A model generated the notes under the pieces. The model searched no databases, had not been told where the DNA came from, and saw only the letters and a program-made list of their open reading frames with translations. From a virus (lineage: Duplodnaviria > Caudoviricetes): a stretch of DNA of 64,000 nucleotides. Position 1 is the stretch's first letter. Every line of letters starts with the position of its first letter. Both the position numbers and the translations under genes were made by a program. The DNA lies in IMG/VR virus record IMGVR_UViG_3300037851_000542, positions 195,995 to 259,994 of that record; one strand, given 5' to 3'. Positions 13,734 through 63,691 of the stretch are shown here, piece by piece.

Positions 13734-13762
13734 CTAAAGTAATTTTAATGGGATTCCGATAC
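13734..13762 (+). promoter_or_regulatory. Sigma-28-like promoter, variant copy
   Basis: CTAAAGT; TAAA-N16-TCCGATAC; upstream of the 13814 ATG. Confidence 0.6.
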
Positions 13763-13813
13763 TACCTGAGAGAGATTTTATAAACGTATTTTAATTTTTA
13801 TTCAGGAAAACGT

Positions 13814-15325
13814 ATGCTAGACAATTATAATGAAAAAGCTTTTAAGTTACTTGGTCTTGGTAATTCTTTTAAATTAGCGCACTTACCTTTTATTACCAGC
13901 AATGATGTATTTGGAGTTTTAGCTCTAGAAGGTTCATCAGGAACTGGTAAAACTACACTAGTCGGAAGATTAGGTTTAGTAAACCAAAGGGCAACAGGCG
14001 GCGCTTATGGTATTTACTCCGCAGATAAAGTACAGTACCAAGATTTTGTTGGTATTCCAGTACCTAACATTAAAGAAGGTAAAGTAGATATTCTAGAGAT
14101 GGAGAACGCCATTGCCACTAAAGAAGTACTGCTAATTGACGAGGCGAACAGGGCAGGATATGACGCACAAGAGAAGTTCCTACAGTTATTTTCAACCAGA
14201 ATGATTGACGGACACAAAACTAAGTGTAGATATATCTATATCGCTATGAACCCTGTGCTATCAGAAGACGAGAACGATAATTATGAAGGTGTACAACCTT
14301 TAGACAAGGCTTACGGTGAAAGGGTTCAGGCTATCCTAACTATGCCTAGGTTTAATGATATGTCTAAGACCCACCAGATAGAAATTATGCAAAGCTGTTT
14401 TAATCAAACATCTTGGGCACCAACTGATGAGTTAGTTGAGGCACACAAGGCGTTTATTGCGGAAGCTCGTTCGCATTATAATGATTTAAAAACCACTGCA
14501 ATGGAATCGGTCTGCGAATACTTGCACAATTTTGCAGATTTACTACATTCTGAAAGTAAGAAATCAATAAAACTTGAAGCAAGAAGAATGCAATTCCTAA
14601 TAGTAAACATATTAGGTACACACGCTTTAAATTTGGTATTAAATAATAAAGCTACTTTGGTGACTTCTGCACTAGAAGCTTTAACTATAAGCTTCCCACA
14701 GAGACTTTGGGAACAGAAGATAGAGAATACTCAAATTAGTGTTGCTCACGATCAGTCTGCCCATTTACTAAAAGCTAAAATAACGTCATCTAAGGATAAA
14801 TCTCAAAGTGTTAAATCTCTTTTAAGTAGTTTAAATCAAGACATTACTGAAGGAAAATCTAACACTGAAGACAGATCTAAGAGAATTAATCAAATGATTC
14901 CTGATGTAAGTACTGATGCTTTTGACCACTACATATTTGCTTTTGCAGTAGTCAGAGGATTAGAAGCTGCTGGACCAAACGAATTCATTAAAAATAATGA
15001 GGAAGAAAGACTTACTCGAATTGTTAATGAGATAAGAGACTCTAAATCATATAAGCAGGTTAAGAAGCTATCAGAAAAAGCTGTTAAGTCTGGTAAAAAA
15101 GCTCCTTTGCCAGAATGGTTAGATTCTGATTTAAACACTGATGATGTTGAAATATATAACAACAGTTACAGTGATGAAATCTCTTGGTTTGCTAACGGTC
15201 TTATAGATAAGTTAAAAACACTTGGTCAGTATGATGACTTAACTTTTAAGTATAGAGATGTACTTAGTGAGTTCAATAGTATTAGAAGAGCGGTTATAAA
15301 TTGTATCCAGTCGTTGAATAGTTAA
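13814..15325 (+). CDS. MoxR-like AAA+ ATPase
   Basis: EGSSGTGKTT, LLIDEANRA, IAMNP, DKAYGERV. Confidence 0.85.
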   Translation: MLDNYNEKAFKLLGLGNSFKLAHLPFITSNDVFGVLALEGSSGTGKTTLVGRLGLVNQRATGGAYGIYSADKVQYQDFVGIPVPNIKEGKVDILEMENAIATKEVLLIDEANRAGYDAQEKFLQLFSTRMIDGHKTKCRYIYIAMNPVLSEDENDNYEGVQPLDKAYGERVQAILTMPRFNDMSKTHQIEIMQSCFNQTSWAPTDELVEAHKAFIAEARSHYNDLKTTAMESVCEYLHNFADLLHSESKKSIKLEARRMQFLIVNILGTHALNLVLNNKATLVTSALEALTISFPQRLWEQKIENTQISVAHDQSAHLLKAKITSSKDKSQSVKSLLSSLNQDITEGKSNTEDRSKRINQMIPDVSTDAFDHYIFAFAVVRGLEAAGPNEFIKNNEEERLTRIVNEIRDSKSYKQVKKLSEKAVKSGKKAPLPEWLDSDLNTDDVEIYNNSYSDEISWFANGLIDKLKTLGQYDDLTFKYRDVLSEFNSIRRAVINCIQSLNS

Positions 15326-15362
15326 TTGGGTATAAATAAAAATAACTGTTTGTAAAAAATCT

Positions 15363-15391
15363 CTAAAGTATATCGGCGTATTTGCCGATAT
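15363..15391 (+). promoter_or_regulatory. Sigma-28-like promoter overlapped by a 12-bp palindrome
   Basis: TAAA-N16-GCCGATAT; aagtatatcggc-N6-gccgatatactt at 15366-15395. Confidence 0.7.
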
Positions 15392-15429
15392 ACTTCTATA
15401 GAAGATAAGATCTAATAGGAGTTAATTTA

Positions 15430-17040
15430 ATGTCTACTTATAAACTTCCACCTCTAGCCAGCGAATACCTAAAACACCTTATTAGTAAGTCTCCGGAAGA
15501 CCTACCTTCTTTAAAGAAAATTGCTGGTATAGGCAGGGTCATTTATTCTGATAAAGAAAGTATGTCAGCTGCAGTAGCCAATACTCGACCTTACTCTCTT
15601 ATATTTGGTCGTAAGTTTATGGAAGATAATATGAGAGACGACTACGATGCTGTTTTTATCCTATTTCACGAGTTGACACATCTAGTATTAGACCATTTTG
15701 CACAGGATGTTCTTGGACTTTTTGAAGAAAAGGGACTATCCGGAGATAAGTTAAAGACTATATTTGCACAACACTGTACACATATAGTAGTAGATGCGCA
15801 GGTGAACGCTACTTGTTACCATACACTAAGGGATGAAAAATACAATAACTTTCCAATTTCCTTTTATTCTTTTGAAAAGGTCTTAGCCAGGCACGCAGAA
15901 GCCTCGGCTAAAGCAATAGCAGCAGGACAAGAACCTCCAAAAGAGCCTACTGACAATATGCCATATTGCTTCCTTCATTCCAATGGGGAGAGCGAATGTC
16001 CAGACGATAAGCTAAAGGAAGTACATAGAAAGCTCTACTCTGTTAAAGGTATAAGTAATTCCGAATTAATTGATGCTTTACTACCTTGGTTCCAAAAGAA
16101 TGAAGAGAGTGTAAAAAATGCTATTCAACACTTAATTGGAAATCATAAAGATCTTATGGATGGGGATAGGACCTCTAATCCAAACGATCTGACAAAAGAA
16201 GAAAAAGAAATCCTAGATGCGATTGCTGACGCTATTGATCAGGGGCATAAAAACTCTAAGGACAAGAGCAAGGCAAAAGAAGCGGCAGGAAATAAAGAAG
16301 ATCAGAAGCTGGATAAGGATTTAGCAAGAACAAAAAAGTTAGACGGAGATAAAGAAAATAAAGAAGAACAGAACTCTAAAGACTATACCTTAAATCAAAA
16401 TCCAGTTAAATTGGCAGTAGCAAGATTAAAGCAAAGCCTAAAAACAAACGATTATATTAAAAAAGTACTAGTAAAGCAGTATAAACCTTCACCCTCTAGT
16501 AAACTAGCTAGAGCTATAGAAGCTTTCTATCCTCATACTCCCAGAAGGAGTGTTGTACCCAATTTTCACGATAGAAGAACTTCTTCTCTTTATTCTTGTG
16601 ATATTTTACCAGTATTTCATAATGTACCTGGAAAAGGCGTTAAGAATTCTATAGCGTGTTATATTGATGTTTCTGGTTCTCAAGAACACGTTATACCTAA
16701 AGTAGTAGCAGCAGTACTTAGGTATAAGAAGCACGTAGGTAATGAAGTGTACTGTTTTTCTAATGTAGTATTAGATACTCACGTTAAAAAACTAGCTAAA
16801 GGTGAAATTTTCACCACTGGTGGTACTGACTTTGACCCAGTAGCTGAACATATCCTAGAGAATAAGTTTAAAAGTATTATTATCCTAACTGATGGTTGTG
16901 CCCCATTGTCTGAAGAGAATATATCTAAGCTAAAAGCTAGAAATGTTAAAATAACAGTAGGATGGACAGAAAAAAATATAACTAGAGCACCATTAGAGGC
17001 AGTGTCTAAAGATGAGTTTTGGCTTTTTGATGATAAATAA
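15430..17040 (+). CDS. Metallopeptidase-like (HExxH) plus VWA domain protein (DUF2201-like), MoxR partner
   Basis: FHELTH; MIDAS YIDVSGS, TGGTDF, ILTDG. Confidence 0.85.
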   Translation: MSTYKLPPLASEYLKHLISKSPEDLPSLKKIAGIGRVIYSDKESMSAAVANTRPYSLIFGRKFMEDNMRDDYDAVFILFHELTHLVLDHFAQDVLGLFEEKGLSGDKLKTIFAQHCTHIVVDAQVNATCYHTLRDEKYNNFPISFYSFEKVLARHAEASAKAIAAGQEPPKEPTDNMPYCFLHSNGESECPDDKLKEVHRKLYSVKGISNSELIDALLPWFQKNEESVKNAIQHLIGNHKDLMDGDRTSNPNDLTKEEKEILDAIADAIDQGHKNSKDKSKAKEAAGNKEDQKLDKDLARTKKLDGDKENKEEQNSKDYTLNQNPVKLAVARLKQSLKTNDYIKKVLVKQYKPSPSSKLARAIEAFYPHTPRRSVVPNFHDRRTSSLYSCDILPVFHNVPGKGVKNSIACYIDVSGSQEHVIPKVVAAVLRYKKHVGNEVYCFSNVVLDTHVKKLAKGEIFTTGGTDFDPVAEHILENKFKSIIILTDGCAPLSEENISKLKARNVKITVGWTEKNITRAPLEAVSKDEFWLFDDK

Positions 17041-17045
17041 GGTAT

Positions 17046-17408
17046 ATGGAAAAGTTACTTGAAACCATTTGTTTTAAGTCCATTTTGATGTTCTTAATGG
17101 TATGTCAATTACTGGATGGACTTTTAACTTTCGGCGGGTTAACCTTACTTAATCATAGACTAGACTTTGAAGGTAATATTTTAGTAAGATGTGTACTTAA
17201 ATATTGCGGAGTAATAGAGGGATTAATATTAGTTAAAGCTATAGGTATATTAATTATTTATTTAGTAATACTAAATTTAGATTTAATAATTACCTCCATA
17301 CCAAAAGCCAGATTCAACTTATTTAAAATATTATCTCTAATAATTTTGAGTATATATGTCCTTTATGCTATTATACCTTGGTTGCTGCTATTAACATTTG
17401 ATTGGTGA
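17046..17408 (+). CDS. Membrane protein (DUF5658-like)
   Basis: Three hydrophobic segments; LDGLLT...EGNILVR. Confidence 0.6.
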   Translation: MEKLLETICFKSILMFLMVCQLLDGLLTFGGLTLLNHRLDFEGNILVRCVLKYCGVIEGLILVKAIGILIIYLVILNLDLIITSIPKARFNLFKILSLIILSIYVLYAIIPWLLLLTFDW

Positions 17409-17411
17409 TGT

Positions 17412-18212
17412 ATGTTAAAATATAATGTAGAAGATGATTACCTAGACCTTGTTGGACACGTAATTAATTCTGGAGAAGACAGAGCTGATCGTACTGGCAC
17501 AGGAACCAAAAGTATATTTGGTATGCATCTAAGACATAATATGAGAGAAGGTTTTCCACTACTCACTACTAAATATGTGTGGTTCAAAGGAGTAGTCTCT
17601 GAGTTGCTATGGTTTCTATCAGGATCTACAAATGTTCAAGACCTACATAAGGATAACAATCATATCTGGGACGAATGGGCAGATAAAGACGGCAACCTAG
17701 GCTTAATCTATGGGCATCAGTGGCGCAATCTAAAAGTGGACCAGATACAAGCAACCATTGATGAGATAAAAATAAATCCCACATCAAGAAGATTAATAGT
17801 ATCATCTTGGAATGTAGAGCAACTAGACCAGATGGCTCTCTATCCGTGCCATATTATGTTTCAGGTGTACATTAGAGAGTCTAAGTATCTAGATTTACAA
17901 TTGTATCAAAGATCTGCGGATTTAATGTTGGGGGTTCCATTTAATATTGCTTCCTATAGTTTGTTAATGATGATTTTGGCGCAAGTAACAGGTTATGAAG
18001 CCGGAGAGTTTATATACACTTTAGGGGATGTACACGTTTATAATAATCACATAGACCAAGCAAGGGTGCAATTAGCAAGAGATATTAAGGATGCCTTTCC
18101 TACAGTAGAAATTTTAAACCCCACAAAAGATATAAATAGTTTTAAATTAGAGGATTTTAAGTTGTGTAATTATACACATCAAGGTAAAATTGAGTTTCCA
18201 GTAGCTGTATAA
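17412..18212 (+). CDS. thyA: Thymidylate synthase
   Basis: DRTGTGT, GFPLLTTK, ELLWFLSG, YGHQWR, MALYPCH, YQRSADLMLGVPFNIASY. Confidence 0.97.
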   Translation: MLKYNVEDDYLDLVGHVINSGEDRADRTGTGTKSIFGMHLRHNMREGFPLLTTKYVWFKGVVSELLWFLSGSTNVQDLHKDNNHIWDEWADKDGNLGLIYGHQWRNLKVDQIQATIDEIKINPTSRRLIVSSWNVEQLDQMALYPCHIMFQVYIRESKYLDLQLYQRSADLMLGVPFNIASYSLLMMILAQVTGYEAGEFIYTLGDVHVYNNHIDQARVQLARDIKDAFPTVEILNPTKDINSFKLEDFKLCNYTHQGKIEFPVAV

Positions 18213-18232
18213 TCTCTTTAGGTGCAAGATAA

Positions 18233-19050: not shown

Positions 19051-20025
19051 ATGAACCTTACTAAAAAAAGAGTAGCATTTAAACCTTTCGAGTATCCTGA
19101 AGTTACAAAATACAAAGATGCAATAAATCACAGTTATTGGTTAGTTAGCGAGTGGAATTTTATTAGTGATATTCAAGACTTTAATGTAAAATTAAATAAT
19201 CAAGAGCGTAATGCAGTTAAAAATACTTTACTTGCTATATCCCAGATAGAAGTATCAGTTAAAAGATTCTGGACTAATTTAGGTAAATGGTTTCCTAAAC
19301 CAGAAATAGAGCAAGTCGGAGTTACTTTTGGTGAATCTGAAGTAAGACACGCAGATGCCTACTCACATTTGTTAGAAGTGCTGGGATTAAACGAAGACTT
19401 TGACCTGTTGTTGCAAAATCCTGTTATTCAAGGCAGAGTTCAATACTTAACTAAGTACCTTAAACAAGCAGCAGATACTGATACAGAAGAGTATACTTTA
19501 ACATTAGCTTTATTTTCTATTTTTATTGAAAACGTAAGTTTATTTTCGCAATTTGCAATTATTAAATCATTTAGTAAACATAAAAATCTGCTAAAGGATA
19601 TTGATAATGTTGTGCAAGCCACACAACAAGAGGAATTAATCCACGCCCAGTTTGGAGTCTACTTACTAAAACAAATTAAAAAAGAATTTCCCAAATGGTT
19701 TGACGAAGATTTTTATAAGAAAATATATAGAGCAGCTAAAAAAGCTTACCTAGCCGAAGAAAAAATATTAGACTGGATATTTGAAGAAGGAGAACTCAGT
19801 TTTCTTTCTAAAGATGTCTTAAAAGAGTTTATTAAAGACAGAATCAATAAAAGTATAGTAGAATTAGAGGGCGAGCCTGTATTTGAAATTAATCAAGATT
19901 TGCTAAAACAATTAGAATGGTTTAATGAAGAGATTTATTCCCAAGTTAATAGCGACTTCTTCTATAAAAAACCTGTCACCTACAGTAAGAAAGTTCAATC
20001 AATTAAAGAAGAGGATTTATTTTAA
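19051..20025 (+). CDS. nrdB: Class I ribonucleotide reductase beta subunit
   Basis: FKPFEYP, SQIEVSV, ESEVRHADAYS, IENVSLFSQF, EELIHAQFG, NSDFFYKKP. Confidence 0.95.
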   Translation: MNLTKKRVAFKPFEYPEVTKYKDAINHSYWLVSEWNFISDIQDFNVKLNNQERNAVKNTLLAISQIEVSVKRFWTNLGKWFPKPEIEQVGVTFGESEVRHADAYSHLLEVLGLNEDFDLLLQNPVIQGRVQYLTKYLKQAADTDTEEYTLTLALFSIFIENVSLFSQFAIIKSFSKHKNLLKDIDNVVQATQQEELIHAQFGVYLLKQIKKEFPKWFDEDFYKKIYRAAKKAYLAEEKILDWIFEEGELSFLSKDVLKEFIKDRINKSIVELEGEPVFEINQDLLKQLEWFNEEIYSQVNSDFFYKKPVTYSKKVQSIKEEDLF

Positions 20026-22802
20026 TGTCGAAAGATTATGTTTGGTTAAATGAGTATTCACAACAATATTTGGAATCAGATTATTTAGTATCAGGACAGT
20101 CATTAGATGAAAGAGTAGACGTTATATGTCAGACTATTGCAAAAATACTTGGAGATAAGCTCTCTATTGCCGATAAATTTAAAGAAAATTTAAAAAAAGG
20201 CTGGTACTCTTTATCCACCCCTATATGGGCTAACTTTGGAACAGACAGAGGGCTTCCCATTAGTTGTTTTTCAAGTACTATTGAGGATAATATGGCGTCT
20301 ATACTTTACACCAACGCTGAAGTTGGTATGATGACTAAGTATGGTGGCGGAACGGCAGCTTATTTTGGAGATCTAAGGGGTAGAGGTCACCCAATTAAGA
20401 ATAATGGATATTCTTCTGGTGCTGTACATTTTATGCAAATGTTTGACTCTCAAATGAGCGTTATAAGCCAGGGATCTACTCGTCGTGGTAACTTCGCAGC
20501 TTATCTCCCCATAAATCATCCAGACATAATGGAATTTTTAAAAATAAAAAGCGAAGGGTTTTTAATTCAAGACCTTTCTTTTGGGGTATGTGTTGAGGAC
20601 GAGTGGCTTCAATCAATGAAAGATGGGGACAAAGAAAAAAGAAAAATATGGGCAAAGGTGCTAGAAGTTAGAGCTAATGTTGGATACCCTTACATAATAT
20701 TTACCGATAATGTAAATAAAAATACAGCCGATGTTTACATTGACAAGGAGATGAAAATCACTCACTCAAATTTATGCATAGCTGGAGATCAAAGAGTGGT
20801 AACTTCTCTAGGTTATCTAACAGCAAAAGAGCTTTGTGAATTAGATATTCCTTTATCCTTATTTGATGGGGAAAAAGAAGTTAAATCTTCAAAAATGAAA
20901 CTTAGAGAACACTCCGCAGATATATTTAAGATTACTTTAGAAAACGGTTTAGAACATAGAATAACTGGTTATCACCCTTTGCCAGTTTTAAATACTGCTA
21001 CTAAGCAGATTTCTAAAACCTTGTGCCAAGATTTAAAAGTAGGAGATATAATTGCTATCCAAACTAACAAAGGTTTATTTGGAGAATTAGATATGCCTAA
21101 AGAAGCTTTTTTATTAGGGCTCTACCAAGGAGACGGTACTCAAACCAAAACAGATATAATGCTGGACCTCTGGGAAAATGATTTTGATCTAGAAAAAGAA
21201 ATACAAGAAGCTTTTAATTATATTCATTTTAAATACAATTGTGATAATTACGGAGTTATTAATCAAACTGCCAGATTGGTTGGGACTAGAAGAAGAAATC
21301 CAGCTACTTTTCATACATGTAACGCAGGACAGTCTAACGTAGCAAAAAAAAGATTAAGCTCTAGAACTTTAAAAAAAGCTCTAGATTTTAAAAAAGGAAT
21401 AGTGCCAGACTGGATTTGGAAGTCTTCCGAGAAAACCCAATGGCAATACGTAAGGGGATTACTTTATTCAGACGGTACTTGCGGAATGTACAATGGTAAA
21501 GGTGATTCGATTCAGGTTTCTCTAGCTAGTATTGATTTAACTTTTCTTAAAGATGTTCAGCTAATTTTTAATAATCTGGGATTGCAATCCTCTATTAGAT
21601 TGTTGAGAAAATCAGGACAAAATCTACTACCCGATGGTAAAGGTGGAAAGAAATACTATCATACAAAGGACTGTTGGAGACTCATTGTTAGCAATAAAGC
21701 TTCCTGTATAGAGTTAGATTTAAATACGGGATTTTTAAAAAGAAAAAGCATTAACTTATCTAATAGAAAATACCGAGATAATACTAAAAAAGGTTATAAA
21801 ATAAGTTCAATAATGTATGAAGGAAGAGAGCCTGTATATTGCCCTACTGTTGAGAGTGAAGATCATATATTTATCAGCCAAGGTTTCAAAACATTTAACT
21901 GTAGTGAGATCTTTTTGCCCACAAGTGCTACAGAGTCTTTTGTTTGTGATCTCTCTTCTATGAACTTACTCCATTATGATGATTGGAAAGATACAGATGC
22001 AGTAGAAGTTTTGATTTATGTTTTAGATGCAGTTATGGAAGAGTTCATAGAGAAGTCTAAAAACATTATGTTTATGGATCGGGCGCATAATTTTGCTAAA
22101 AATCACAGAGCTTTAGGTCTAGGGGTACTAGGTTGGCACAGCTTACTACAAAGTAAAATGATACCATTTGAAAGTATGGAAGCTAAGTTATTAAATACTA
22201 CAATTTTTAAGGGACTACAAAAGAAAACTCTTGAAGCCTCTCAATACTTAGCTACTATATACGGTGAGCCTAAATTATTAAAAGGGTACGGAAGAAGAAA
22301 TTCTACTACTATGGCTATTGCACCTACCAAAAGTTCTGCTTTTATATTAGGTCAAGTGTCAGAAGGTATTGAACCTCACAAGTCTAATTATTATATTAAA
22401 GATTTGGCTAAAGGAAAGTTTTCTATACGAAATGTTCATTTAAAAGATCTACTGGCATCTCTTCAAAGGGATACTTCGGAAGTTTGGGAATCTATCTTAA
22501 AAAATAAAGGTAGCGTTCAGCATTTAGATTTTCTAACTATTGAGCAAAAAAACGTATTTAAGACTTTTCAGGAAATCTCCCCGAGAGAAATTGTTATTCA
22601 AGCAGCATCTAGACAAAAGTATATCGACCAAGGGCAGTCGTTAAATTTAATGATTAATCCTAAAACTCCAGTTAAAGATGTAAATGCTTTAATATTAGAA
22701 GCTTGGGAGTTAGGTGTAAAAGCTTTCTATTATCAGATCGGTATAAATGCTGCTCAAGAGCTTAGTCAAAATATTCTTACTTGCACTAGTTGCGAAAGTT
22801 AA
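20025..22802 (+). CDS. nrdA: Class I ribonucleotide reductase alpha subunit with intein
   Basis: PISCF, TRRGNFAAYL, SNL[intein]CSEI, AIAPTKSS, DQGQSLN, C-terminal CTSC. Confidence 0.96.
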   Translation: MSKDYVWLNEYSQQYLESDYLVSGQSLDERVDVICQTIAKILGDKLSIADKFKENLKKGWYSLSTPIWANFGTDRGLPISCFSSTIEDNMASILYTNAEVGMMTKYGGGTAAYFGDLRGRGHPIKNNGYSSGAVHFMQMFDSQMSVISQGSTRRGNFAAYLPINHPDIMEFLKIKSEGFLIQDLSFGVCVEDEWLQSMKDGDKEKRKIWAKVLEVRANVGYPYIIFTDNVNKNTADVYIDKEMKITHSNLCIAGDQRVVTSLGYLTAKELCELDIPLSLFDGEKEVKSSKMKLREHSADIFKITLENGLEHRITGYHPLPVLNTATKQISKTLCQDLKVGDIIAIQTNKGLFGELDMPKEAFLLGLYQGDGTQTKTDIMLDLWENDFDLEKEIQEAFNYIHFKYNCDNYGVINQTARLVGTRRRNPATFHTCNAGQSNVAKKRLSSRTLKKALDFKKGIVPDWIWKSSEKTQWQYVRGLLYSDGTCGMYNGKGDSIQVSLASIDLTFLKDVQLIFNNLGLQSSIRLLRKSGQNLLPDGKGGKKYYHTKDCWRLIVSNKASCIELDLNTGFLKRKSINLSNRKYRDNTKKGYKISSIMYEGREPVYCPTVESEDHIFISQGFKTFNCSEIFLPTSATESFVCDLSSMNLLHYDDWKDTDAVEVLIYVLDAVMEEFIEKSKNIMFMDRAHNFAKNHRALGLGVLGWHSLLQSKMIPFESMEAKLLNTTIFKGLQKKTLEASQYLATIYGEPKLLKGYGRRNSTTMAIAPTKSSAFILGQVSEGIEPHKSNYYIKDLAKGKFSIRNVHLKDLLASLQRDTSEVWESILKNKGSVQHLDFLTIEQKNVFKTFQEISPREIVIQAASRQKYIDQGQSLNLMINPKTPVKDVNALILEAWELGVKAFYYQIGINAAQELSQNILTCTSCES
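20775..21899 (+). mobile_element. Intein (375 aa) with LAGLIDADG homing endonuclease in nrdA
   Basis: Starts CIAGDQRVVTSLG, ends FKTFN before CSEI; LLGLYQGDGT and VRGLLYSDGT motifs. Confidence 0.93.
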
Positions 22803-34948: not shown

Positions 34949-34977
34949 TTGAATCCTTTGTTGTTTAGAGGTATAAT
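34949..34977 (+). promoter_or_regulatory. Sigma-70-type promoter
   Basis: TTGAAT-N17-TATAAT upstream of 35013. Confidence 0.65.
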
Positions 34978-35012: not shown

Positions 35013-36278
35013 ATGTCATTATACAAAGAAGTTACTAAATGCAGGTCCTGTGGTAGCAATATAACTAGTCTATTAGAACTTGGAAACCACAAACTTACAG
35101 GAATATTCCCAGATCCAGGTCAACATTTACCTGAAGCACCAGTTACTCTGATGAAGTGTGTAAACAAGGAATGTGGACTGGTTCAGTTAAAGGAATCAGT
35201 AGATCCGAATCTAATGTACGGAAAAGATTATGGTTATAGGACTGGATTAAATAAGTCAATGTATAACCACGTACTTTCCACCCTAGATTTAAGTAAAAAG
35301 TGGATTACTCTTGAAAGCGGAGACGTTTACGTAGACTGTGGAAGTAACGACGGAAGCCTTGTCAACCACGTATCTAAAAGCACCGAGGGCGTTTTATGTG
35401 TGGGTGTGGATCCTACTATCTGTAAATTTTCAAAATTCTATAACCCAGAAGTTGTAAAAGTAGAAAACTTTTTCAATTATGGTTCGGTAAGTGAAGCTAT
35501 AGGAAACAAGAAAATAAAACTACTTACTAGTTTAAGTATGTTCTATGATCTAGAAGATCCTAACAGTTTTGTTAAAGAAGTCAATAGTTTAATCTCTAAT
35601 GATGGTGTTTGGATTTTTGAACAAGCTTACCTTGGGTTTATGTTAAACAGAGTGACAGTAGATACTATTCTATCTGAGCATTTATTATATTATGACCTAA
35701 AATCAATAGATTACATTCTCTCCCGAAATGGAATGAAAATTATTGATGTAGAGCTAAATGATATAAATGCAGGAAGTTTAAGGGTAACAGCTGTAAAGGA
35801 TACAAGTAAGTTTACACCATCTCCTTCCGTAGGTCTATTAAAGAACTACGAGGAAGTAATGGGGTTTAACGATAGTAGTTTTTCTATCTATAAAAACTTT
35901 GTTACGCTTTGTGAGAACTTTAAAGGTAAATTTCAAGAATTCCTACGTGATTCCTGTTGGACTGATAAAACGGTTTACGCACTAGGTGCGTCAACAAAGT
36001 TTAATTGCATTCTACAGTATGTCGAAGCTAACCCAGACTTAATAAAAGGCATAGGGGAAGTCAATCCAGATAAATTTGGAAAAGTAACACCAGGTACTCA
36101 AATACCTATTTTAAGCGAAGATAACGTTTTGGAACTTCAGCCTGACTTTATAGTAATAGGTTGCTACCACTTTAAAGACTTCTTTTTAAACAATGAGAAA
36201 ATAAAGAAGTATATGAGTAAAGGTGGAACAGTAGTGTTTCCATTACCACATTTAGAGTTTTACAGCACAGGTAGTTAA
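35013..36278 (+). CDS. NDP-sugar C-methyltransferase-like protein
   Basis: CRSCG...CVNKECGLVQL, YGYRTG, DCGSNDGSL, SEHLLYY, LGASTKFN, GTQIPI. Confidence 0.85.
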   Translation: MSLYKEVTKCRSCGSNITSLLELGNHKLTGIFPDPGQHLPEAPVTLMKCVNKECGLVQLKESVDPNLMYGKDYGYRTGLNKSMYNHVLSTLDLSKKWITLESGDVYVDCGSNDGSLVNHVSKSTEGVLCVGVDPTICKFSKFYNPEVVKVENFFNYGSVSEAIGNKKIKLLTSLSMFYDLEDPNSFVKEVNSLISNDGVWIFEQAYLGFMLNRVTVDTILSEHLLYYDLKSIDYILSRNGMKIIDVELNDINAGSLRVTAVKDTSKFTPSPSVGLLKNYEEVMGFNDSSFSIYKNFVTLCENFKGKFQEFLRDSCWTDKTVYALGASTKFNCILQYVEANPDLIKGIGEVNPDKFGKVTPGTQIPILSEDNVLELQPDFIVIGCYHFKDFFLNNEKIKKYMSKGGTVVFPLPHLEFYSTGS

Positions 36279-41520: not shown

Positions 41521-41865
41521 TTATTGTGGTCCAATTACAATCCAAGTACTTTTGTAATTTTCCATATTAAATGCACACTCAGCAAAAAACTTATTGTCTG
41601 ATGTTAAAAAAAGTGCATCTACCCCATCAGAACAAGTTAAAACTGTTAGTTTATTAAAAGTATCCATAAAACCTTGGCTGAATTGTGGCACAAAAAACAG
41701 CACCTTATATCCTTCTAAGGTCTCCTTATCAGCCAGTAGCTTTACTTGCTCTTTAGGTAATGCGCTGTCTGTGTGGTATTCAAACAATAGGTCAAAGTTC
41801 TTTTTCTCAATACCGTTTTCTGGTCCTGTATAGTCTTCATTCGATTTAGTGGCAGTAGTGCTCAT
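41521..41865 (-). CDS. Hypothetical protein
   Basis: 114 aa; upstream AAGGA and a sigma-28-like site. Confidence 0.7.
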   Translation of the reverse strand: MSTTATKSNEDYTGPENGIEKKNFDLLFEYHTDSALPKEQVKLLADKETLEGYKVLFFVPQFSQGFMDTFNKLTVLTCSDGVDALFLTSDNKFFAECAFNMENYKSTWIVIGPQ

Positions 41866-41940: not shown

Positions 41941-41969
41941 ATATCGGCTGGTGTTTGATAATACTTTAG
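41941..41969 (-). promoter_or_regulatory. Sigma-28-like promoter
   Basis: Minus strand: CTAAAGT; TAAA-N16-GCCGATAT. Confidence 0.7.
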
Positions 41970-53103: not shown

Positions 53104-53427
53104 TTAAATATAAATAAAAGGTTTTCTCTTCAATACTATGTAGCTCCAGTATGCGATATATCCTGTTCTATCATTACTACTAAGATGACTTCCTTCTAAC
53201 GCCAATTTGTGCAAGTCTTCCGGATATAAAATTACAGGATATCCATTTAAAAATGCTTTTTTATTTTCTCTACTAAACATATAGTGAGAAAATACCTCAT
53301 CAAAACTATTAGTAATTTTTGCCTGGAATGGTATTATACTTTCACAATCTTTACAAACACAAAGTTTAGAATGCTCTATTGTATCTAAGATACTCTCTGA
53401 AAATCTTCTTATAAAGTATTTAGCCAT
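53104..53427 (-). CDS. Small protein (PFIYI*)
   Basis: ORF track; follows a sigma-28-like site. Confidence 0.65.
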   Translation of the reverse strand: MAKYFIRRFSESILDTIEHSKLCVCKDCESIIPFQAKITNSFDEVFSHYMFSRENKKAFLNGYPVILYPEDLHKLALEGSHLSSNDRTGYIAYWSYIVLKRKPFIYI

Positions 53428-53459: not shown

Positions 53460-53488
53460 ATATCGGCGCAAAATGAAAATAACTTTAG
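53460..53488 (-). promoter_or_regulatory. Sigma-28-like promoter
   Basis: CTAAAGTT; TAAA-N16-GCCGATAT. Confidence 0.7.
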
Positions 53489-55416: not shown

Positions 55417-56769
55417 TTATTTATTTTTTTTCTTCCAAAACGTATTGTCAAAATGCCCTGCCATAATACAACCGTATGGTATTATTTCATCTATTACTTG
55501 CCCAAGATCGAATTCTTCCATTTGCTTCCTAACAGTGTTAGCATTCTTATAAGCACTTGGTAATTCTGAGACATCTATTTGTTTAGAATAGAATCTAATA
55601 TCTAACCCTTTAGTTTCATTTATGAATGTCTGCTCTGGAGATGTATCAATAGAACTTTTATGTTGCGCCCTACTAAAATTTCTACCAGCGCCGTGAGGAG
55701 CAAAGCCTAGGTTAGACTCTGAAGTAGTACCCTTAACGACTAATATAGGCTCACTCATATTTAAGGGTATTAACCTTAAACCATTTACACTATCGGGTAC
55801 AAATTTATTATCTAAAGGCGTAGCCCCCTTAGCGTGATAAAATAAATCACCATCTTTAAAAACAAAGTTATGCTCATTCCAGAATCTATCTAAGGGATCT
55901 ACTTTTATGTTATTACTTACTGCATCGTGTAGAGTAGTATGATTTAACTTAGTCCAAGTTCTAACTATCTGTAAAGCTTGCCAATATGACTCACCTTCTT
56001 TAGTATCAGCAGGAATCCAAGCATTATTTTCAGAAGCTTTTGGGGCAATGTCTTTTAAAAAAGTCTTTGCCACTTTTACACCCTGTGTGTATAAATATGC
56101 CCCAAAACCACGACTACCGTGATGAGTTACCATTACTGTCTCGCCAGTATTTCTAGAAGTACCAACAAAAAGGAAGTGGTTGCCATCACCCTGAGTGCCT
56201 AAATGCCCCTTAGCTAAGCCTAGACTTTTATCAGAATTTAAAAAGCTATTATCTAAAATCTTAGCTTCAAGCTCAGAGGGTAGAGTAGAAAACTTCTCTC
56301 TGCCACCAGCACCAAAGTGTGTAATAGAAAGGGCACTATCCAGAATAAGTTTGGGGGATACGTTTCCAAAGTTAGTCGCCATAACCGAGCAGCAGATATC
56401 AGCGCTGTGCATAGATGGATGAATAGCATTCCTAGTTACTACAATGCCTCCTACGGGTATTTGACCTTCTCCTGTAGGGCAAGCGTCGGGCATAACAGCG
56501 CCTGTAACTACAGTAGGTGTCACCATAATCTGATTCATTACTGAGATTACCTTTTCAACGTTATCCTTCTCATGATCAGATTCCGCTCTGATATTTTGAT
56601 AAAAAGGCAAGGGTGCACAATAAGGTTCAAGATATTTAGGCTGAGCAGACTCCAAATAATCAGTTAAAAATTCACCAGTTAGATTAAACTGATTAATGTG
56701 ATCAATAGCAGATTTAAACCACTTACCTGGTTTGTAACCTAAATCTATTAATGTTTTACCGGTAATCAT
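55417..56769 (-). CDS. rtcB: RtcB RNA ligase
   Basis: MPDACP, SADICCSV, GTQGDGNHF, THHGSRG, HNFV, HAKGA, HGAGR, ELPSAYK. Confidence 0.93.
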   Translation of the reverse strand: MITGKTLIDLGYKPGKWFKSAIDHINQFNLTGEFLTDYLESAQPKYLEPYCAPLPFYQNIRAESDHEKDNVEKVISVMNQIMVTPTVVTGAVMPDACPTGEGQIPVGGIVVTRNAIHPSMHSADICCSVMATNFGNVSPKLILDSALSITHFGAGGREKFSTLPSELEAKILDNSFLNSDKSLGLAKGHLGTQGDGNHFLFVGTSRNTGETVMVTHHGSRGFGAYLYTQGVKVAKTFLKDIAPKASENNAWIPADTKEGESYWQALQIVRTWTKLNHTTLHDAVSNNIKVDPLDRFWNEHNFVFKDGDLFYHAKGATPLDNKFVPDSVNGLRLIPLNMSEPILVVKGTTSESNLGFAPHGAGRNFSRAQHKSSIDTSPEQTFINETKGLDIRFYSKQIDVSELPSAYKNANTVRKQMEEFDLGQVIDEIIPYGCIMAGHFDNTFWKKKNK

Positions 56770-56780: not shown

Positions 56781-57062
56781 TTAAATTAAATAATAAGCTT
56801 TTTCAATAGTTTGAGGGTCAGTAGTTACAATGGGTCTTCTAAGTCCATATTCTGGCAATTCTTTATACTTCATCAGAAAATCAAATGCCCAATAAGGATT
56901 TAAGTATTGCAACATAAGTATCTTAATTATAGTATCCTCGGACCAAGCTATAAAGTATTTTTTAGTAGATTTCACATTCATATTAAAATACTTATGTTTA
57001 TTGTTTTCTCGCTTTAACTCAGTGCATAAAACTGAGTACTTAGGTTCAATTTCCGTTTCCAT
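56781..57062 (-). CDS. Small protein (AYYLI*)
   Basis: ORF track. Confidence 0.65.
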   Translation of the reverse strand: METEIEPKYSVLCTELKRENNKHKYFNMNVKSTKKYFIAWSEDTIIKILMLQYLNPYWAFDFLMKYKELPEYGLRRPIVTTDPQTIEKAYYLI

Positions 57063-57498
57063 AATACTTTAAATAATATAAAAAAAAATTAGCAATTATG
57101 TCTTTAGAATCATCAGCACCTTTGGACATTAAAAAGTGAGCATCATTAAAATGTCTGTTTTCTAAAGCACACTTGAGTGTTTCAGAAAAAGGAGAACAAG
57201 AACTACGCCTGTTCACATTTGCTCCTTGTTCTACAAACCATACCACTACGTCCAGACAACCTTGTGAGGCGGCTGATCTTAAAGCCAGATAACGGTCATA
57301 AGCTATTTCAGAACCGCAAGATACTAAGTACTTTACAGTAGGCAGGTGTCCCCCGTAAGCAGCTTCAAGAAGCGCAATATTCATAGTGCGCTGATCTATA
57401 TCTGTAGACTTAATATAACTCTCGACTAACTCTAAGTTACCATAACTACAAGCTTTATAAAATTCAGGTATTAAATGCTGTTCCATCTTACTCTGCAA
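57046..57498 (-). CDS. Ankyrin-repeat protein
   Basis: ACSYGNLELV, AAYGGHLPTVKYLV, AASQGCLDVVVWFVEQGANVN. Confidence 0.88.
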   Translation of the reverse strand: MQSKMEQHLIPEFYKACSYGNLELVESYIKSTDIDQRTMNIALLEAAYGGHLPTVKYLVSCGSEIAYDRYLALRSAASQGCLDVVVWFVEQGANVNRRSSCSPFSETLKCALENRHFNDAHFLMSKGADDSKDIIANFFLYYLKYYGNGN

Positions 57499-57519: not shown

Positions 57520-57548
57520 ATATCGGCGACTATTTAAATTAACTTTAA
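57520..57548 (-). promoter_or_regulatory. Sigma-28-like promoter
   Basis: TTAAAGTT; TAAA-N16-GCCGATAT, close upstream of the ankyrin gene. Confidence 0.7.
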
Positions 57549-58954: not shown

Positions 58955-58963
58955 ATTTTGTGT

Positions 58964-59083: not shown

Positions 59084-59091
59084 AGCATTTT

Positions 59092-59747: not shown

Positions 59748-59758
59748 TTAATTTACCT

Positions 59759-60097
59759 TTATATTATACGCAAAATATCTATTACACCGTAAAATTCCAT
59801 AGCTCTGTCTGTTTGCTTTGAAAGTGGAATATCTACTATATAGAACGTATTTTTTACTTTTGGTTTTCTTAGATAAAACAGGTCATTGTAAATCTCTATA
59901 GGACTTTCACCATTAGGTAGGTGGGGAAACCTGTCTTTAAAAAGAACATTTATTAACCACCACTTTGAGCATCTTTTATATAAGTAAGGCTTTAAAGCAG
60001 GATATGGAAATTTCCCGCCCCAGCTTTTGTCAACTTCTGTGAAGTAAACCAGTAAATGGTCTTCTTTGTGTAACTCTAAAAATTCCTGCGAATCCAT
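59759..60097 (-). CDS. Small protein (ILRII*)
   Basis: ORF track. Confidence 0.65.
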   Translation of the reverse strand: MDSQEFLELHKEDHLLVYFTEVDKSWGGKFPYPALKPYLYKRCSKWWLINVLFKDRFPHLPNGESPIEIYNDLFYLRKPKVKNTFYIVDIPLSKQTDRAMEFYGVIDILRII

Positions 60098-60120
60098 TTT
60101 GTTATACTAAATTGAATTAG

Positions 60121-60570
60121 TTACTCGCTGCCACAGTTTGGGGTTAGCCCTTCAAAAAGATTATATAGAACAGCTTCTCCTACATCACGATGGTAATCAA
60201 AATCTAAATTTCTTTTGACAAGAAAACTGACTAACATTGTCCAAGGGACTGAAAGTATTGCTAATATAACATAATACATAAAGGCTAGCATTGCTATAGG
60301 TATAGGAGATAGTAGTAACAGAATTACAGCGTGTATAATACTACCTTTGAACATAATGCCAAAGATGCCTGTTAAAACAGATAAAATACCAAAAATAGTA
60401 GTTACAAAAAAAGTAGTGAGTATAAAACGTGTACAAGCAACCACGACTGAGTCTGTTTGTAGATCAAAAGCAGTTAAAGGTCTGCAGGAGGTCTCATATT
60501 GTTCTATCTTATCGTACTCTATTTCTAGGGTTTTTAGATGTTCTAATTTATTGATTTCTTTGTTGTCCAT
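60121..60570 (-). CDS. Membrane protein
   Basis: Long hydrophobic centre; AAGGA RBS. Confidence 0.7.
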   Translation of the reverse strand: MDNKEINKLEHLKTLEIEYDKIEQYETSCRPLTAFDLQTDSVVVACTRFILTTFFVTTIFGILSVLTGIFGIMFKGSIIHAVILLLLSPIPIAMLAFMYYVILAILSVPWTMLVSFLVKRNLDFDYHRDVGEAVLYNLFEGLTPNCGSE

Positions 60571-60588
60571 TATGTTTCCTTTTTATTA

Positions 60589-61077
60589 TTAATCTAAATT
60601 AAACCACTCTGGTTGGTGCTCTTTTATTTTCCACGTAGCTATTTTAGCTTTATCCTTTATGTAATAAAGACGATAGGCTTGTACTGCATCTTCTGGGTTT
60701 TTATATTCAACCGGCATAGCCTGAGCAAAAGGAGTCATACCTTTAGGGATATTTTCCGGCGCTTGTTTTAATAATTTAGACATTTTAGCATCTGTTGCGT
60801 GTACTTTACCGTACCTTCTAGTGTACTCCAAACACATTTCCTGGAAATGATCATAAAGCCAGTTGTAATTGTCCAGCCCCGATCTTGCCCAGATAGATGA
60901 AGGATGATTAACGTGAGAGGCTCTGTATAGACTGTCTATATAAGGCGCTGTTGCGTTTAAAACTCTATGGGCAGTAGACATCAGCTGAGCACTTTCTAGA
61001 ATCATCTTGACTACGTGCTTGTCGCACAGAGACCGTGCTGCTACTTTTGGGTCCTCGTCTACAACAAAGATATTCAT
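60589..61077 (-). CDS. denV: Pyrimidine-dimer DNA glycosylase (DenV/endonuclease V family)
   Basis: MNIF...LCDKHVVKMILESAQL, HVNHPSSIW, QAMP, AYRLYY. Confidence 0.85.
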   Translation of the reverse strand: MNIFVVDEDPKVAARSLCDKHVVKMILESAQLMSTAHRVLNATAPYIDSLYRASHVNHPSSIWARSGLDNYNWLYDHFQEMCLEYTRRYGKVHATDAKMSKLLKQAPENIPKGMTPFAQAMPVEYKNPEDAVQAYRLYYIKDKAKIATWKIKEHQPEWFNLD

Positions 61078-61084
61078 ATTTTTC

Positions 61085-61318
61085 CTAAATTAAATAATAC
61101 ATTTCATTTAAACAAGTATGTATAATCTCATGTCTACAGCATAATGTAAAATAATAGTCGTGATTATGTATAATACTTCTTTTTAAATCTACTATATCCC
61201 CTATTAGAATCACATCCCAAAGCGTCGATATATCTGTTATTTTAGCCCCTGTAGAAAGCGTTAAGTAGTATGGAGGTGCTTGAGGTATAACAGTGTTTTT
61301 TATAAGTACTTTATTCAT
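61085..61318 (-). CDS. Small protein (MYYLI*)
   Basis: ORF track. Confidence 0.65.
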   Translation of the reverse strand: MNKVLIKNTVIPQAPPYYLTLSTGAKITDISTLWDVILIGDIVDLKRSIIHNHDYYFTLCCRHEIIHTCLNEMYYLI

Positions 61319-61330
61319 AGTTTTCTTACA

Positions 61331-61633
61331 TTAAATTAAATAAAACATATCATAGCAATCTGTAAATCTTATACGATTATTTTTAATGCCTTTTACAACA
61401 GGGTTATTAAGAAATATAGACACGCCTCTTACTGACTTATTAATAATGTCTTGTTTGTTTATCATATAATTTTCCAAAGAGGTAACATAAGGATCTATTC
61501 CAAAAGGATCTGTATAGACTTGCACATCTACATCTTTAATCTTACTAGATTTTATATATACTAAAAAATGTAAACCCGACCTTTCTTTGGCTAAGTAAGT
61601 ATTATAAACTTTAAGTTGTTCTTTATTTTCCAC
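61331..61633 (-). CDS. Small protein (MFYLI*)
   Basis: ORF track. Confidence 0.65.
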   Translation of the reverse strand: MENKEQLKVYNTYLAKERSGLHFLVYIKSSKIKDVDVQVYTDPFGIDPYVTSLENYMINKQDIINKSVRGVSIFLNNPVVKGIKNNRIRFTDCYDMFYLI

Positions 61634-61639
61634 TTTTTA

Positions 61640-61945
61640 TCAGATTAAGTAAAATAAGTCCTGACATGCCCAATTCTCGTGGGCATCTAAGTCAAAAGAA
61701 TCAAACCAATCAACATCAAAACAAGCACTGTCTTTATATGTTTTAGTATAGGTCCTTCTGTCTCTAATAAACTCGTCAAAAGAAACAATATCATTATTAC
61801 CTAAATACACACAAACTAAATGTAAATTTTTAGGCTTTATTTTTACTATAGCGTAACGAGTTTTAGACCTACGACGGTTTTCTGTGTATTGTTTACCTTT
61901 ACCTAAGTAGTAATATAAATCAGGTTGCTTTTTAACGTCTCTCAT
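61640..61945 (-). CDS. Small protein (LFYLI*)
   Basis: ORF track. Confidence 0.65.
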   Translation of the reverse strand: MRDVKKQPDLYYYLGKGKQYTENRRRSKTRYAIVKIKPKNLHLVCVYLGNNDIVSFDEFIRDRRTYTKTYKDSACFDVDWFDSFDLDAHENWACQDLFYLI

Positions 61946-61953
61946 GTATTAAT

Positions 61954-62139
61954 CTATATTAAAACTGCATTTAATATACCCACTATTACCAAAGAAAAAA
62001 AAGTACCTACTATAAATAAAACAAGCCATATAATAGGGTAAGGATCAGGAAAGTCATTTTTACGAAGCACCCAAGTAGGCACTAAAGCAGAAATAACCAT
62101 TAAAATTAAAAAAACAAATTTACAAATTTCTTCTTTCAT
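61954..62139 (-). CDS. Small two-TM membrane protein
   Basis: Resembles the adjacent 62136 ORF. Confidence 0.65.
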   Translation of the reverse strand: MKEEICKFVFLILMVISALVPTWVLRKNDFPDPYPIIWLVLFIVGTFFSLVIVGILNAVLI

Positions 62140-62324
62140 AATCCTAATCCGTTTAATATCGTGTTTATGATTGCTACTAAAAACACTATACCTAATAATG
62201 TTAACACGCAGAACATAAAAGTAAAAAACTCTTTATGAGGATGATCACCTACTACCTTATGGGCAATGCAAAAACAAAATAGCGCTAATATTAAAAATAC
62301 GACTTGGGTAACTATTTCTCTCAT
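62136..62324 (-). CDS. Small two-TM membrane protein
   Basis: AAGGA RBS. Confidence 0.65.
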   Translation of the reverse strand: MREIVTQVVFLILALFCFCIAHKVVGDHPHKEFFTFMFCVLTLLGIVFLVAIINTILNGLGL

Positions 62325-62340
62325 GTTTTTCCTTTTTAAA

Positions 62341-63069
62341 TTAAAATTTGTTTAAACTTTCAGATGCAAAATTAAAATAATCTTTATCTAACTCAATACC
62401 TATAAAATTTCTATTATTCTTCTTACAGCTAAGTCCAGTAGTACCTGTTCCCATAAATGGATCTATTATAGTATCACCTTCTGCTGAAAAATTAGTAATA
62501 ATTTTATTAACTAACTCTATTGGATAAGTAGCTCCGTGGGTTTTTATAACTTTCTTGCCTCTTTTTATTTGCCATAAATTCTCTAGAGTACCCCTATTAA
62601 AGTTACCTTTTTTAAACTGCCTAGTAATAGCTTCTTCTTTGCTAGCTAAAACTATTAGAACTTCAAATCTAGAGTTTAAAACACCACTACCTATTGCCGG
62701 TTCAGCATTTATTTTGTCCCAGATAATAAATTCTTTAACGTTTTCATTAAAGTGACCTAACAGTTTGTACAGTGCTTGTTTATTGCCGGTTAGAAACTGA
62801 ACATTATAAAATACTAAGTGGCTGACCCTTAACAATTGATTTAGTACTTTGACATTAAAGTTAAAATACTCTTCCATAGATAAGTTATTAGAATAGTTAG
62901 CATACTTAGTACTAATCTCTTTTACTATTTGTCTAGAACAGTGTTTCCCATTACGTACTCGTAAATTCATATTGTAAGGAGGGCTAGTTATAGCAAGATC
63001 ACAAGTATTATCTTTGATAAGCTTCAGATAACCTAAACAATCACCGTGTAATAGTTTAATATTACTCAT
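62341..63069 (-). CDS. DNA N4/N6 methyltransferase (beta class)
   Basis: LLHGDC, ITSPPY, HGATYP, IDPFMGTGTT, GIELD. Confidence 0.92.
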   Translation of the reverse strand: MSNIKLLHGDCLGYLKLIKDNTCDLAITSPPYNMNLRVRNGKHCSRQIVKEISTKYANYSNNLSMEEYFNFNVKVLNQLLRVSHLVFYNVQFLTGNKQALYKLLGHFNENVKEFIIWDKINAEPAIGSGVLNSRFEVLIVLASKEEAITRQFKKGNFNRGTLENLWQIKRGKKVIKTHGATYPIELVNKIITNFSAEGDTIIDPFMGTGTTGLSCKKNNRNFIGIELDKDYFNFASESLNKF

Positions 63070-63328
63070 TAGTCCAGCCGGATACAGTAAAAGTCTTTAG
63101 GGTAGTAACTACAGTATAACCTTCATTTACAAGTTCGTTTAAAACTGCTATTATAAAAGGCATTTGATCCGGACTGCCCTTATCGAAAGTAGCAAATGTT
63201 TGTCCAAACTTACGTTCCTCATATATTGCATCTCTGACAAAGGCTCTCCACTGTTCTGTTAAAGTTTCATCTGTAAGAACTTCTTCAATTAAATTTCCTG
63301 TGTAAGGATCTAGTACTCTGTTTCCCAT
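63062..63328 (-). CDS. Hypothetical protein
   Basis: 88 aa; coupled to both neighbours. Confidence 0.65.
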   Translation of the reverse strand: MGNRVLDPYTGNLIEEVLTDETLTEQWRAFVRDAIYEERKFGQTFATFDKGSPDQMPFIIAVLNELVNEGYTVVTTLKTFTVSGWTNE

Positions 63329-63630
63329 TATTTATCTCCTATATACATTTGCCCGTCGGAAGTGCAGTTCAAGCCGTCTTTAAAAGTAGAATACTTCTCT
63401 ATATAATAATGCTCTAGTTTTTCCCAATCAGCGGTAAATTCAGATAGTTGTACAATTTCCCAATCGGCTTTTTCGGTAAACGCAAAGGCTAGATTTAAAG
63501 GGTTTCTAAACTCATATCTTTTTTGCCATCTTTTTCTAAAATAAACATTTAAACTCGACTTTATAGTGGAGCCTACATACTTTAGATACCTGTTATGTTT
63601 ATGCCTAAGCAAGTAAACTTGTTTCTCCAA
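63328..63630 (-). CDS. GIY-YIG nuclease-domain protein
   Basis: VYLL...YVGST...R...LEHYYI...GLN. Confidence 0.75.
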   Translation of the reverse strand: MEKQVYLLRHKHNRYLKYVGSTIKSSLNVYFRKRWQKRYEFRNPLNLAFAFTEKADWEIVQLSEFTADWEKLEHYYIEKYSTFKDGLNCTSDGQMYIGDK

Positions 63631-63662
63631 AATTAATCCTATATTAAATGGTTACACAGTTT

Positions 63663-63691
63663 ATATCGGCAAAGTTAAACTAAAACTTTAG
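63663..63691 (-). promoter_or_regulatory. Sigma-28-like promoter
   Basis: CTAAAGTTT; TAAA-N16-GCCGATAT. Confidence 0.72.

Follow-up and report, generated by a model that had tools for sequence, protein, structure and literature searches.

The window analysed here is a 64-kb stretch of viral DNA, bases 195,995-259,994 (the last 64 kb) of the 259,994-bp IMG/VR record IMGVR_UViG_3300037851_000542, and it carries six copies of a two-part motif, TAAAG-N16-CCGATA, whose form is that of promoters for sigma-28, the sigma factor of flagellar genes. There is strong evidence that this motif is a promoter class spanning the phage genome, with about 54 sites. The genome also encodes a single sigma-like protein, P0001, which may be the factor that reads these promoters; the alternative, that they are read by the sigma-28 of the host, is weighed against it below. 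The record is the genome of an uncultured jumbo phage (32.9% G+C, with a CheckV completeness estimate of 95%) whose DNA is present in two freshwater metagenome runs. A megablast search of GenBank phages with a 20-kb piece of the window gave no match, the best matches of the phage's family-A DNA polymerase among 50,697 GenBank phage records have at most 26% identity, and no tRNA genes were found in the genome.

Six sites in the window

An earlier note on this DNA, made from its letters alone, had placed six sigma-28-type promoters in the window, and all six are present as exact matches where it put them and on the same strands. The six copies compare with 0.05 expected from 100 dinucleotide shuffles, none of which gave six, and a scan of the 64-kb window with a position weight matrix (PWM) found no sites beyond the following:

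13734-13761, plus strand: site P1, boxes cTAAAGT and TCCGATA, exact match, PWM score 25.7 bits, intergenic and co-oriented; 53 nt on, at 13814, is the start codon (ATG) of a MoxR-type AAA_5 ATPase gene (13814-15325, Pfam AAA_5)
15363-15390, plus strand: site P2, boxes cTAAAGT and GCCGATA, exact match and PWM match; 40 nt on is a von Willebrand factor A (VWA)-like gene (15430-17040, Pfam DUF2201)
41942-41969, minus strand: site P3, exact match and PWM match, intergenic; 77 nt on is a 114-aa open reading frame (ORF) (41521-41865, minus strand) with no family in the Pfam search
53461-53488, minus strand: site P4, cTAAAGTT-N13-GCGCCGATAT, at 38.3 bits the top PWM score among the window copies; 34 nt on is a 107-aa ORF (53104-53427, minus strand) with no family in the Pfam search
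57521-57548, minus strand: site P5, exact match and PWM match, ahead of an ankyrin-repeat gene (57046-57498, minus strand, Pfam Ank_2)
63664-63691, minus strand: site P6, exact match and PWM match, first in a minus-strand array of small ORFs; 34 nt on is a GIY-YIG gene (63328-63630, minus strand, Pfam GIY-YIG)

All six sites are intergenic and are followed on the same strand by a start codon 23-77 nt past the box, in keeping with the 20-80 nt that had been claimed, and the Pfam search bears out the genes that had been named behind them, namely the MoxR-type AAA_5, VWA-like DUF2201, ankyrin and GIY-YIG genes and two small ORFs. A C precedes TAAAG in five of the six copies. The hexamer CCGATA occurs 18 times in the window, and the 12 occurrences outside the motif are coding and have no TAAAG partner. 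The spacer, given in the earlier note as an invariant 16 nt, is indeed constant in all six copies, but the figure of 16 counts from TAAA to the (G/T), and the distance from TAAA to CCGATA itself is 17. Transcription is predicted to start near 13770 for P1, 15399 for P2, 41933 for P3, 53452 for P4, 57512 for P5 and 63655 for P6. The operon starting at 13735/15364 is devoted to nucleotide metabolism and includes a ribonucleotide reductase gene. Behind P5, the ATG of the ankyrin-repeat gene is likely at 57486, and downstream of this gene lies an RtcB gene in the same direction (55417-56769, Pfam RtcB).

Both boxes of P2 lie within a perfect 13-bp hairpin, AAGTATATCGGCG/loop/CGCCGATATACTT (15359-15401; -22.2 kcal/mol, z = -6.2), situated in the gap from the MoxR to the VWA gene, and the left arm of this hairpin carries a reversed copy of the -10 box. 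Read-through from P1 might be stopped or attenuated here, but the plus strand shows no U-tract.

A promoter class throughout the genome

The idea of a phage regulon holds well beyond the window, as the motif class extends over the whole genome. Exact TAAA-N17-CCGATA is found in 40 copies, while each other spacing from 12 to 20 gives only 0-4, and with a looser core the contrast is sharper still, 49 copies of TAAAG-N17-CGATA against none of TAAAG-N16-CGATA. The comparison with a shuffled background that the earlier note had suggested came out clearly: with a threshold of 12 bits, a PWM derived from the exact copies picks out 54 sites, as opposed to 0-1 in five Markov-shuffled genomes. Nor is the motif equally frequent in coding DNA, which would have spoken against promoters. 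About 50 of the 54 PWM sites are intergenic although the non-coding share of the genome is 8.1%, a figure that rests on a crude gene call, and for 48 of the 54 a same-strand start codon lies within 120 nt.

The conserved columns read C-TAAAG-(T/A)(T/A), a T-rich spacer and (G/T)-CCGATA, with an A/T-rich stretch upstream. From the -35 box, cTAAAG(T/A), the (G/T)CCGATA element begins 15 bp on. TAAAG is invariant and is preceded by C in 35 of the 40 exact copies, and the base before CCGATA is G in 22 and T in 13 of them, while the variants picked up by the PWM have the first C of CCGATA replaced by A or T. The sites are concentrated at 5-27 kb (minus strand), at 28-66 kb and, inside the window, at 246-260 kb (minus strand), and in these dense regions they precede arrays of small ORFs. 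The densest of these arrays, at 10-20 kb of the genome (locus L011), has a conserved TATAGG(C/G)AAAAA 8-12 nt past CCGATA, at the start expected for a sigma-28-type promoter. This element resembles the initiation region of T7-type promoters, and no T7-like polymerase is encoded.

Resemblance to sigma-28 promoters

Within the hierarchy of flagellar genes, sigma-28 promoters form the last tier. The phage sites have the same three elements as class-3 flagellar promoters, the targets of FliA in E. coli and Pseudomonas, of SigD in Bacillus and of WhiG in Streptomyces, i.e. the -35 box, the GC of the extended -10 and the -10 box CGATA(A/T), and they also share the non-conserved A/T-rich spacer and the placement 20-80 nt ahead of start codons. 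They differ in that the spacer is 1 bp longer in all copies, in that there are 54 sites, and in that the genes behind them are unrelated to motility. Precedents in phage-derived DNA are isolated sigma-28-dependent genes of prophages, for example flxA in the Qin prophage of E. coli. Like the sites described here, flxA has a sigma-28 promoter, but it is one gene of a cryptic prophage, whereas in this genome the promoters form the main class of a jumbo phage of the virulent type.

The sigma-28 consensus consists of a -35 TCTAAAG, an extended -10 GC and a -10 CGATAA, and in the fliC promoter of P. aeruginosa TCTAAAG occupies -36 to -30 and GCCGATAA, the GC of which is the extended -10, occupies -15 to -8 (PMC12784957). 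The phage -35 box, TAAAG mostly with C before it, agrees with this consensus, as does the -10 region, where CCGATA with G or T before it corresponds to GCCGATA(A/T), and the intergenic, co-oriented placement is also that of a sigma-28-type promoter. The spacing does not agree, as the canonical TAAAG-N14-GCCGATAA is equivalent to TAAAG-N16-CGATA, the form of which the genome has no copy. This longer spacer weakens the sigma-28-type assignment without excluding it, because spacer length is not strictly conserved in sigma-28 promoters (PMC12784957). The earlier note was therefore right about the promoter-like sigma-28 architecture, but its consensus of TAAA-N15/16 conceals by its range that every copy is 1 bp over the canonical spacing.

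The phage sigma factor P0001

The genome has no match to the Pfam models of the RNA polymerase beta and beta-prime subunits, and neither phmmer nor tblastn with the T7 protein found a T7-type RNA polymerase in it. The search had been redone with the T7 RNA polymerase protein because the Pfam T7-type model is silent in the control genomes as well. With no RNA polymerase encoded by the phage, the sites must be read by the core enzyme of the host.

The sole sigma-like ORF is P0001, a protein of 323 aa encoded at 78288-79259 of the genome, outside the window and between tail-fibre genes. Its matches to regions 2 and 4 are weak, and it matches PHROG 351, annotated as sigma factor. PF04542 scores 23.7 bits in a six-frame search of the genome (24.6 with its neighbours; cut-off 24) and 20.9 bits with the ORF alone, and TIGR02937 gives E = 1.6e-9, which is under the cut-off of the model. 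A profile of the P0001 family also detects region 2 in chains of SigA and RpoD (E = 3.6e-9). The AlphaFold2 model of P0001 has a mean predicted local distance difference test (pLDDT) score of 85.5, and Foldseek aligns it over its full length (about 300 columns) to sigma-A, sigma-S and sigma-28 chains with a probability of 1.0, although structure comparison does not separate these three as to the nearest fold. P0001 thus has regions 2 and 4 and the fold of the sigma-70 family. On this evidence it is a complete sigma2-sigma3-sigma4 protein and carries a domain that reads a -35 box.

P0001 reaches no subfamily cut-off, the RpoD, SigB/F/G and RpoH models being equally weak. The search of the genome for a group 3 sigma factor accordingly gave nothing that its sequence would identify as a member of that group. 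A second region-4 match, at 91.3 kb of the genome, proved to be a LAGLIDADG-type homing endonuclease with a helix-turn-helix and not a sigma factor. The P0001 gene lies behind TTGCAT-N17-TAATAT with a TGn extension, and a sigma-70-like promoter is likewise found directly 5' of the sigma gene in the relatives L006, L009 and L173. A gene for a PAS/HisKA/HATPase histidine kinase (genome 73762-74982) also lies amid the tail-fibre genes and precedes the sigma gene by a few kb.

Relatives of P0001 are few. An exhaustive HMMER search of 1.8 billion representatives yielded only 5-6 homologues with 38-56% identity, tblastn against GenBank phages detected none, and the family has no relative in a set of one genome per prokaryote species. 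The motif is present in every contig found with a P0001 homologue and enough flanking DNA, including the 153-kb IMG/VR record G001, whose sigma factor is 44% identical to P0001. G001 has 38 copies of the motif, 27 with N16 and 11 with N17, and prefers TG at -16/-15, two bases before CGATA, with no preference at -14, where the genome studied here prefers C; here, all 49 copies are N17. These differences in spacing and extended -10 fit a co-evolving phage factor better than the conserved sigma-28 of a host.

Other promoter classes in the genome

Two further promoter types are found beside the sigma-28-like class:

34949-34977, plus strand: sigma-70-type promoter, TTGAAT-N17-TATAAT, 36 nt ahead of a C-methyltransferase gene at 35013
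2685, 5277, 10832, 29266 and 52548, minus strand: T[AG]TACTAT
43129, plus strand: T[AG]TACTAT

The sigma-70-type site at 34949, which the earlier note had singled out, is real, and other convincing ones are at 81047, 145233 and 198372 of the genome. As a class, sigma-70-like promoters have no statistical support in this AT-rich genome: 23 of 194 matches of at least 10/12 are intergenic, a 1.5-fold enrichment over the non-coding share of 8%, and a scan of the window found 22 where 28 were expected.

T[AG]TACTAT is found at 25 intergenic sites genome-wide, 10-110 nt ahead of genes that are mostly structural. No -35 partner is conserved with it, and the identical motif is found in G001 ahead of structural genes. 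It is a candidate late-promoter class. It is reminiscent of the T4 late promoter, which likewise has an 8-bp box at the -10 position, no -35 element and a place ahead of structural genes. The late promoters of T4 (TATAAATA) are read by gp55 together with gp33 and the sliding clamp (PMC7892883), whereas a gp55-like small sigma was found neither in this phage nor in G001. The sigma-28-like class heads small ORFs and DNA-metabolism genes, while T[AG]TACTAT heads structural genes. The suggestion that the promoters form separate temporal classes is upheld insofar as other promoter types do coexist with the sigma-28-like one, but because the sigma-70-like class is barely enriched it rests mainly on the contrast with T[AG]TACTAT.

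The motif in other viral records

When IMG/VR was scanned for CTAAAGTT-N13-GCCGATA, more than 117 stretches matched. Many unrelated records of 27-64% G+C have 3-11 co-oriented copies of TAAAG-N16/17-CGATA each, while a reversed control gave nearly no matches. Three forms are seen. The first consists of pure sigma-28-like sites. The second is a composite, TAAAG-N7-TTGACA-N4-CGATA-N7-TATAAT, with TTGACA within the spacer and TATAAT downstream, and the third, TTGAC-N2-CTAAAG-N8-TAGAAT-N1-2-CGATA, has TAGAAT or TATAAT just ahead of CGATA. Both composite forms are present in a single genome, G015. As the distance between TAAAG and CGATA stays fixed while the sigma-70 boxes shift, the pair acts as a unit for one factor.

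Composite promoters in these two registers are found in G004-G009, G014, G015, G021-G023, G043, G050 and G059 (loci L098, L101, L111, L113, L116, L139 and L141). The phages that have them encode sigma-like proteins of about 172 aa or about 215 aa with a PLENFL motif, without relatives in GenBank. A search with the composite pattern for a clue to the host matched nothing but contigs in metagenome bins under the labels of many unrelated phyla; these contigs are most likely mis-binned phage DNA, so the bin labels are uninformative in this respect. Among GenBank phages, nothing was matched by blastn with three motif-bearing contigs or by tblastn with the small sigma-like ORF of a further contig.

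The sigma-like ORFs of motif-rich records belong to different families, among them the family of about 172 aa with PLENFL, which is of the size of extracytoplasmic function (ECF) sigma factors, and a RpoD-like protein. Such an ORF is present in 13 of the 14 motif-rich records of at least 90 kb and in 0-1 of the four motif-poor records of that size, counts that are indicative only because the records are partly interrelated and size is a confounding factor.

Which sigma factor reads the sites

The slightly preferred reading, put forward tentatively and with a confidence just short of even, is that P0001, on the host core enzyme, reads the approximately 54 promoters; both this pairing and the timing that goes with it we infer. 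The sigma-70 holoenzyme of the host would transcribe the P0001 gene from TTGCAT-N17-TAATAT soon after infection, and P0001 would then displace the host sigma on the core enzyme. The helix-turn-helix of its region 4 would contact cTAAAG and its region 2/3 (G)CCGATA, and transcription would begin about 8-9 nt past the box. This would switch on the small-ORF arrays and the nucleotide-metabolism operons (MoxR/VWA through to ribonucleotide reductase, and ankyrin/RtcB), with the structural genes using T[AG]TACTAT as a third promoter type. In favour of P0001, it is the sole sigma of the phage and has a domain for reading a -35 box, no other bipartite orphan promoter class is present in the genome, and the P0001 gene is placed for early expression by host sigma-70. 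The co-occurrence of the motif with P0001 homologues, the motif differences from G001 and the link of motif-rich large phages to sigma genes also count for it.

Several observations weigh against P0001. The motif is the sigma-28 consensus in all three elements, and a chance convergence on it is unlikely. The earlier note had envisaged, as one of two possible readers, a FliA-like phage sigma, and although a phage sigma is present it is not FliA-like, as the FliA/WhiG model TIGR02479 gives 19.1 bits against a cut-off of 189.6. The residues through which FliA contacts DNA are largely replaced. An hhalign alignment to E. coli FliA, which at approximately 20% identity is moderately reliable, pairs R91 with Y108, D81 with Q95 and R84 with L98 and retains only R95 (R112). 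In region 4.2, S224 and Q228 of the P. aeruginosa protein correspond by hand alignment to N and E in P0001, and across the P0001 family, in the same alignment, these positions are N/K/S/A and E/D/F, respectively. In the relatives L007 and L008 the sigma gene lies 36 nt behind a RuvB-like gene that itself has a sigma-28-like promoter. The same motif occurs in unrelated phages whose sigma-like ORFs differ greatly, and the complete genomes G016, G024 and G046 (58-60 kb) hold 5-7 copies each and have no sigma ORF. Finally, the small ORFs that the sites precede are densely arrayed at the genome ends. Arrays of this kind usually hold the earliest genes of well-studied large phages and are read by an enzyme that pre-exists in the cell.

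A serious contender, plausible if somewhat doubtful, is the flagellar sigma factor of the host (sigma-28, of the FliA/SigD/WhiG family). The early and middle programme would then run from its holoenzyme in motile cells, infection would be tied to cells in which sigma-28 is active, and P0001 would serve a different class, for which the late T[AG]TACTAT promoters are the simplest choice. Most of the points just raised speak for this reading, i.e. the match to the consensus at the -35 box including the preceding C, at the G/C of the extended -10 and at CGATA; the loss from P0001 of the base-contacting residues of FliA; the presence of the motif in phages with unrelated sigma factors or none; and the position of the sites before early-type small-ORF arrays. 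To these may be added that there are few clear sigma-70-type promoters, a class with hardly any intergenic enrichment, and that sigma-28 is among the more abundant alternative sigma factors in motile E. coli. In G016, G024 and G046, where neither TIGR02937 nor two profiles built here found a sigma ORF, a host factor is the only candidate reader, and these genomes (48-54% G+C, loci L178-L186), the sites of which are often canonical TAAAGTTT-N11-GCCGATAA, stand out most clearly as candidate users of host sigma-28. The proteins of G016 and G046 have only distant matches in GenBank phages (22-27% identity), and no Chi-like flagellotropic phage is among the matches listed for them.

Set against the host factor is the spacing, as a phage tuned to the canonical promoter should favour N16, as G001, G002, G016 and G019 do, whereas 49 of 49 copies here are 1 bp over it. 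The sample is from freshwater, where many abundant bacteria have neither flagella nor fliA. A host reader would also leave the only phage sigma, with its domain for reading a -35 box, matched to a class that has no -35 box, and to rely for 54 promoters on a sigma factor that is inhibited by FlgM would be a risky strategy. Lastly, motif-rich large phages are associated with sigma genes.

It is improbable that the motif is instead a bipartite site for a phage repressor or activator, or a signal for RNA or DNA processing. An operator overlapping a promoter could look like the composite sites of other viral records, where TAAAG-N17-CGATA and perfect sigma-70 boxes interleave in two registers, both of them present in G015, and P2 is itself a hairpin, but no conserved sigma-70 boxes accompany the motif in this genome, so that the transcription units would be left without any promoter; moreover the half-sites are asymmetric, unlike those of most operators, the sequence, spacing and distance to the start codon are those of sigma-28 promoters, and TATAGG(C/G)AAAAA is conserved at the predicted transcription start in the 10-20 kb array. 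What probability remains goes to explanations not considered here.

Comparison with known phage sigma cascades

The closest parallels to the proposed role of P0001 are the sigma cascades of large virulent phages, gp28 and gp33/34 of SPO1 and gp36 of phiEco32. These phages likewise have no RNA polymerase of their own. A phage protein of the sigma-70 family, expressed from a host-type promoter, redirects the host core enzyme and drives the middle genes through a phage-specific bipartite promoter class, a design that would be shared. They differ in that their sigma factors read sequences unlike host promoters, whereas the sequence in this phage belongs to an alternative sigma of hosts, and P0001 has no detectable relatives among GenBank phages. 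Both cascades are named in the literature (PMC9429907; PMC8948821). No report was found of a phage whose main promoter class has the sigma-28 form, although such negative searches are weak evidence. The promoter type itself is textbook knowledge; that it should serve a phage as the main class and be spread among environmental phages appears to be undescribed.

It is possible, if on balance doubtful, that hijacking of host sigma-28 is a general strategy by which this jumbo phage and several unrelated lineages, some of them with composite, interleaved sigma-70/sigma-28 promoters, run their early and middle genes from the flagellar sigma factor. If so, productive infection would depend on, or sense, the motile state, and the phage could shut off sigma-70 transcription with its own genes unharmed. 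Either reading would be new. Phage expression would be coupled to host motility if host sigma-28 reads the sites, and the composite sigma-70/sigma-28 promoters, widespread in environmental phages, would represent a novel regulatory design. With the phage sigma as the reader, FliA specificity would have been reached by a very divergent sigma factor through different contact residues, which bears on how sigma factors recognise DNA. With either reader, the motif provides a ready map of the transcription units of an uncultured jumbo phage clade.

Interrupted genes

The large-subunit gene of ribonucleotide reductase (window 20025-22802) is split by an intein with a LAGLIDADG domain. A GDP-mannose dehydratase gene (genome 92060-94057) is apparently interrupted too, and a LAGLIDADG-like ORF adjoins it.

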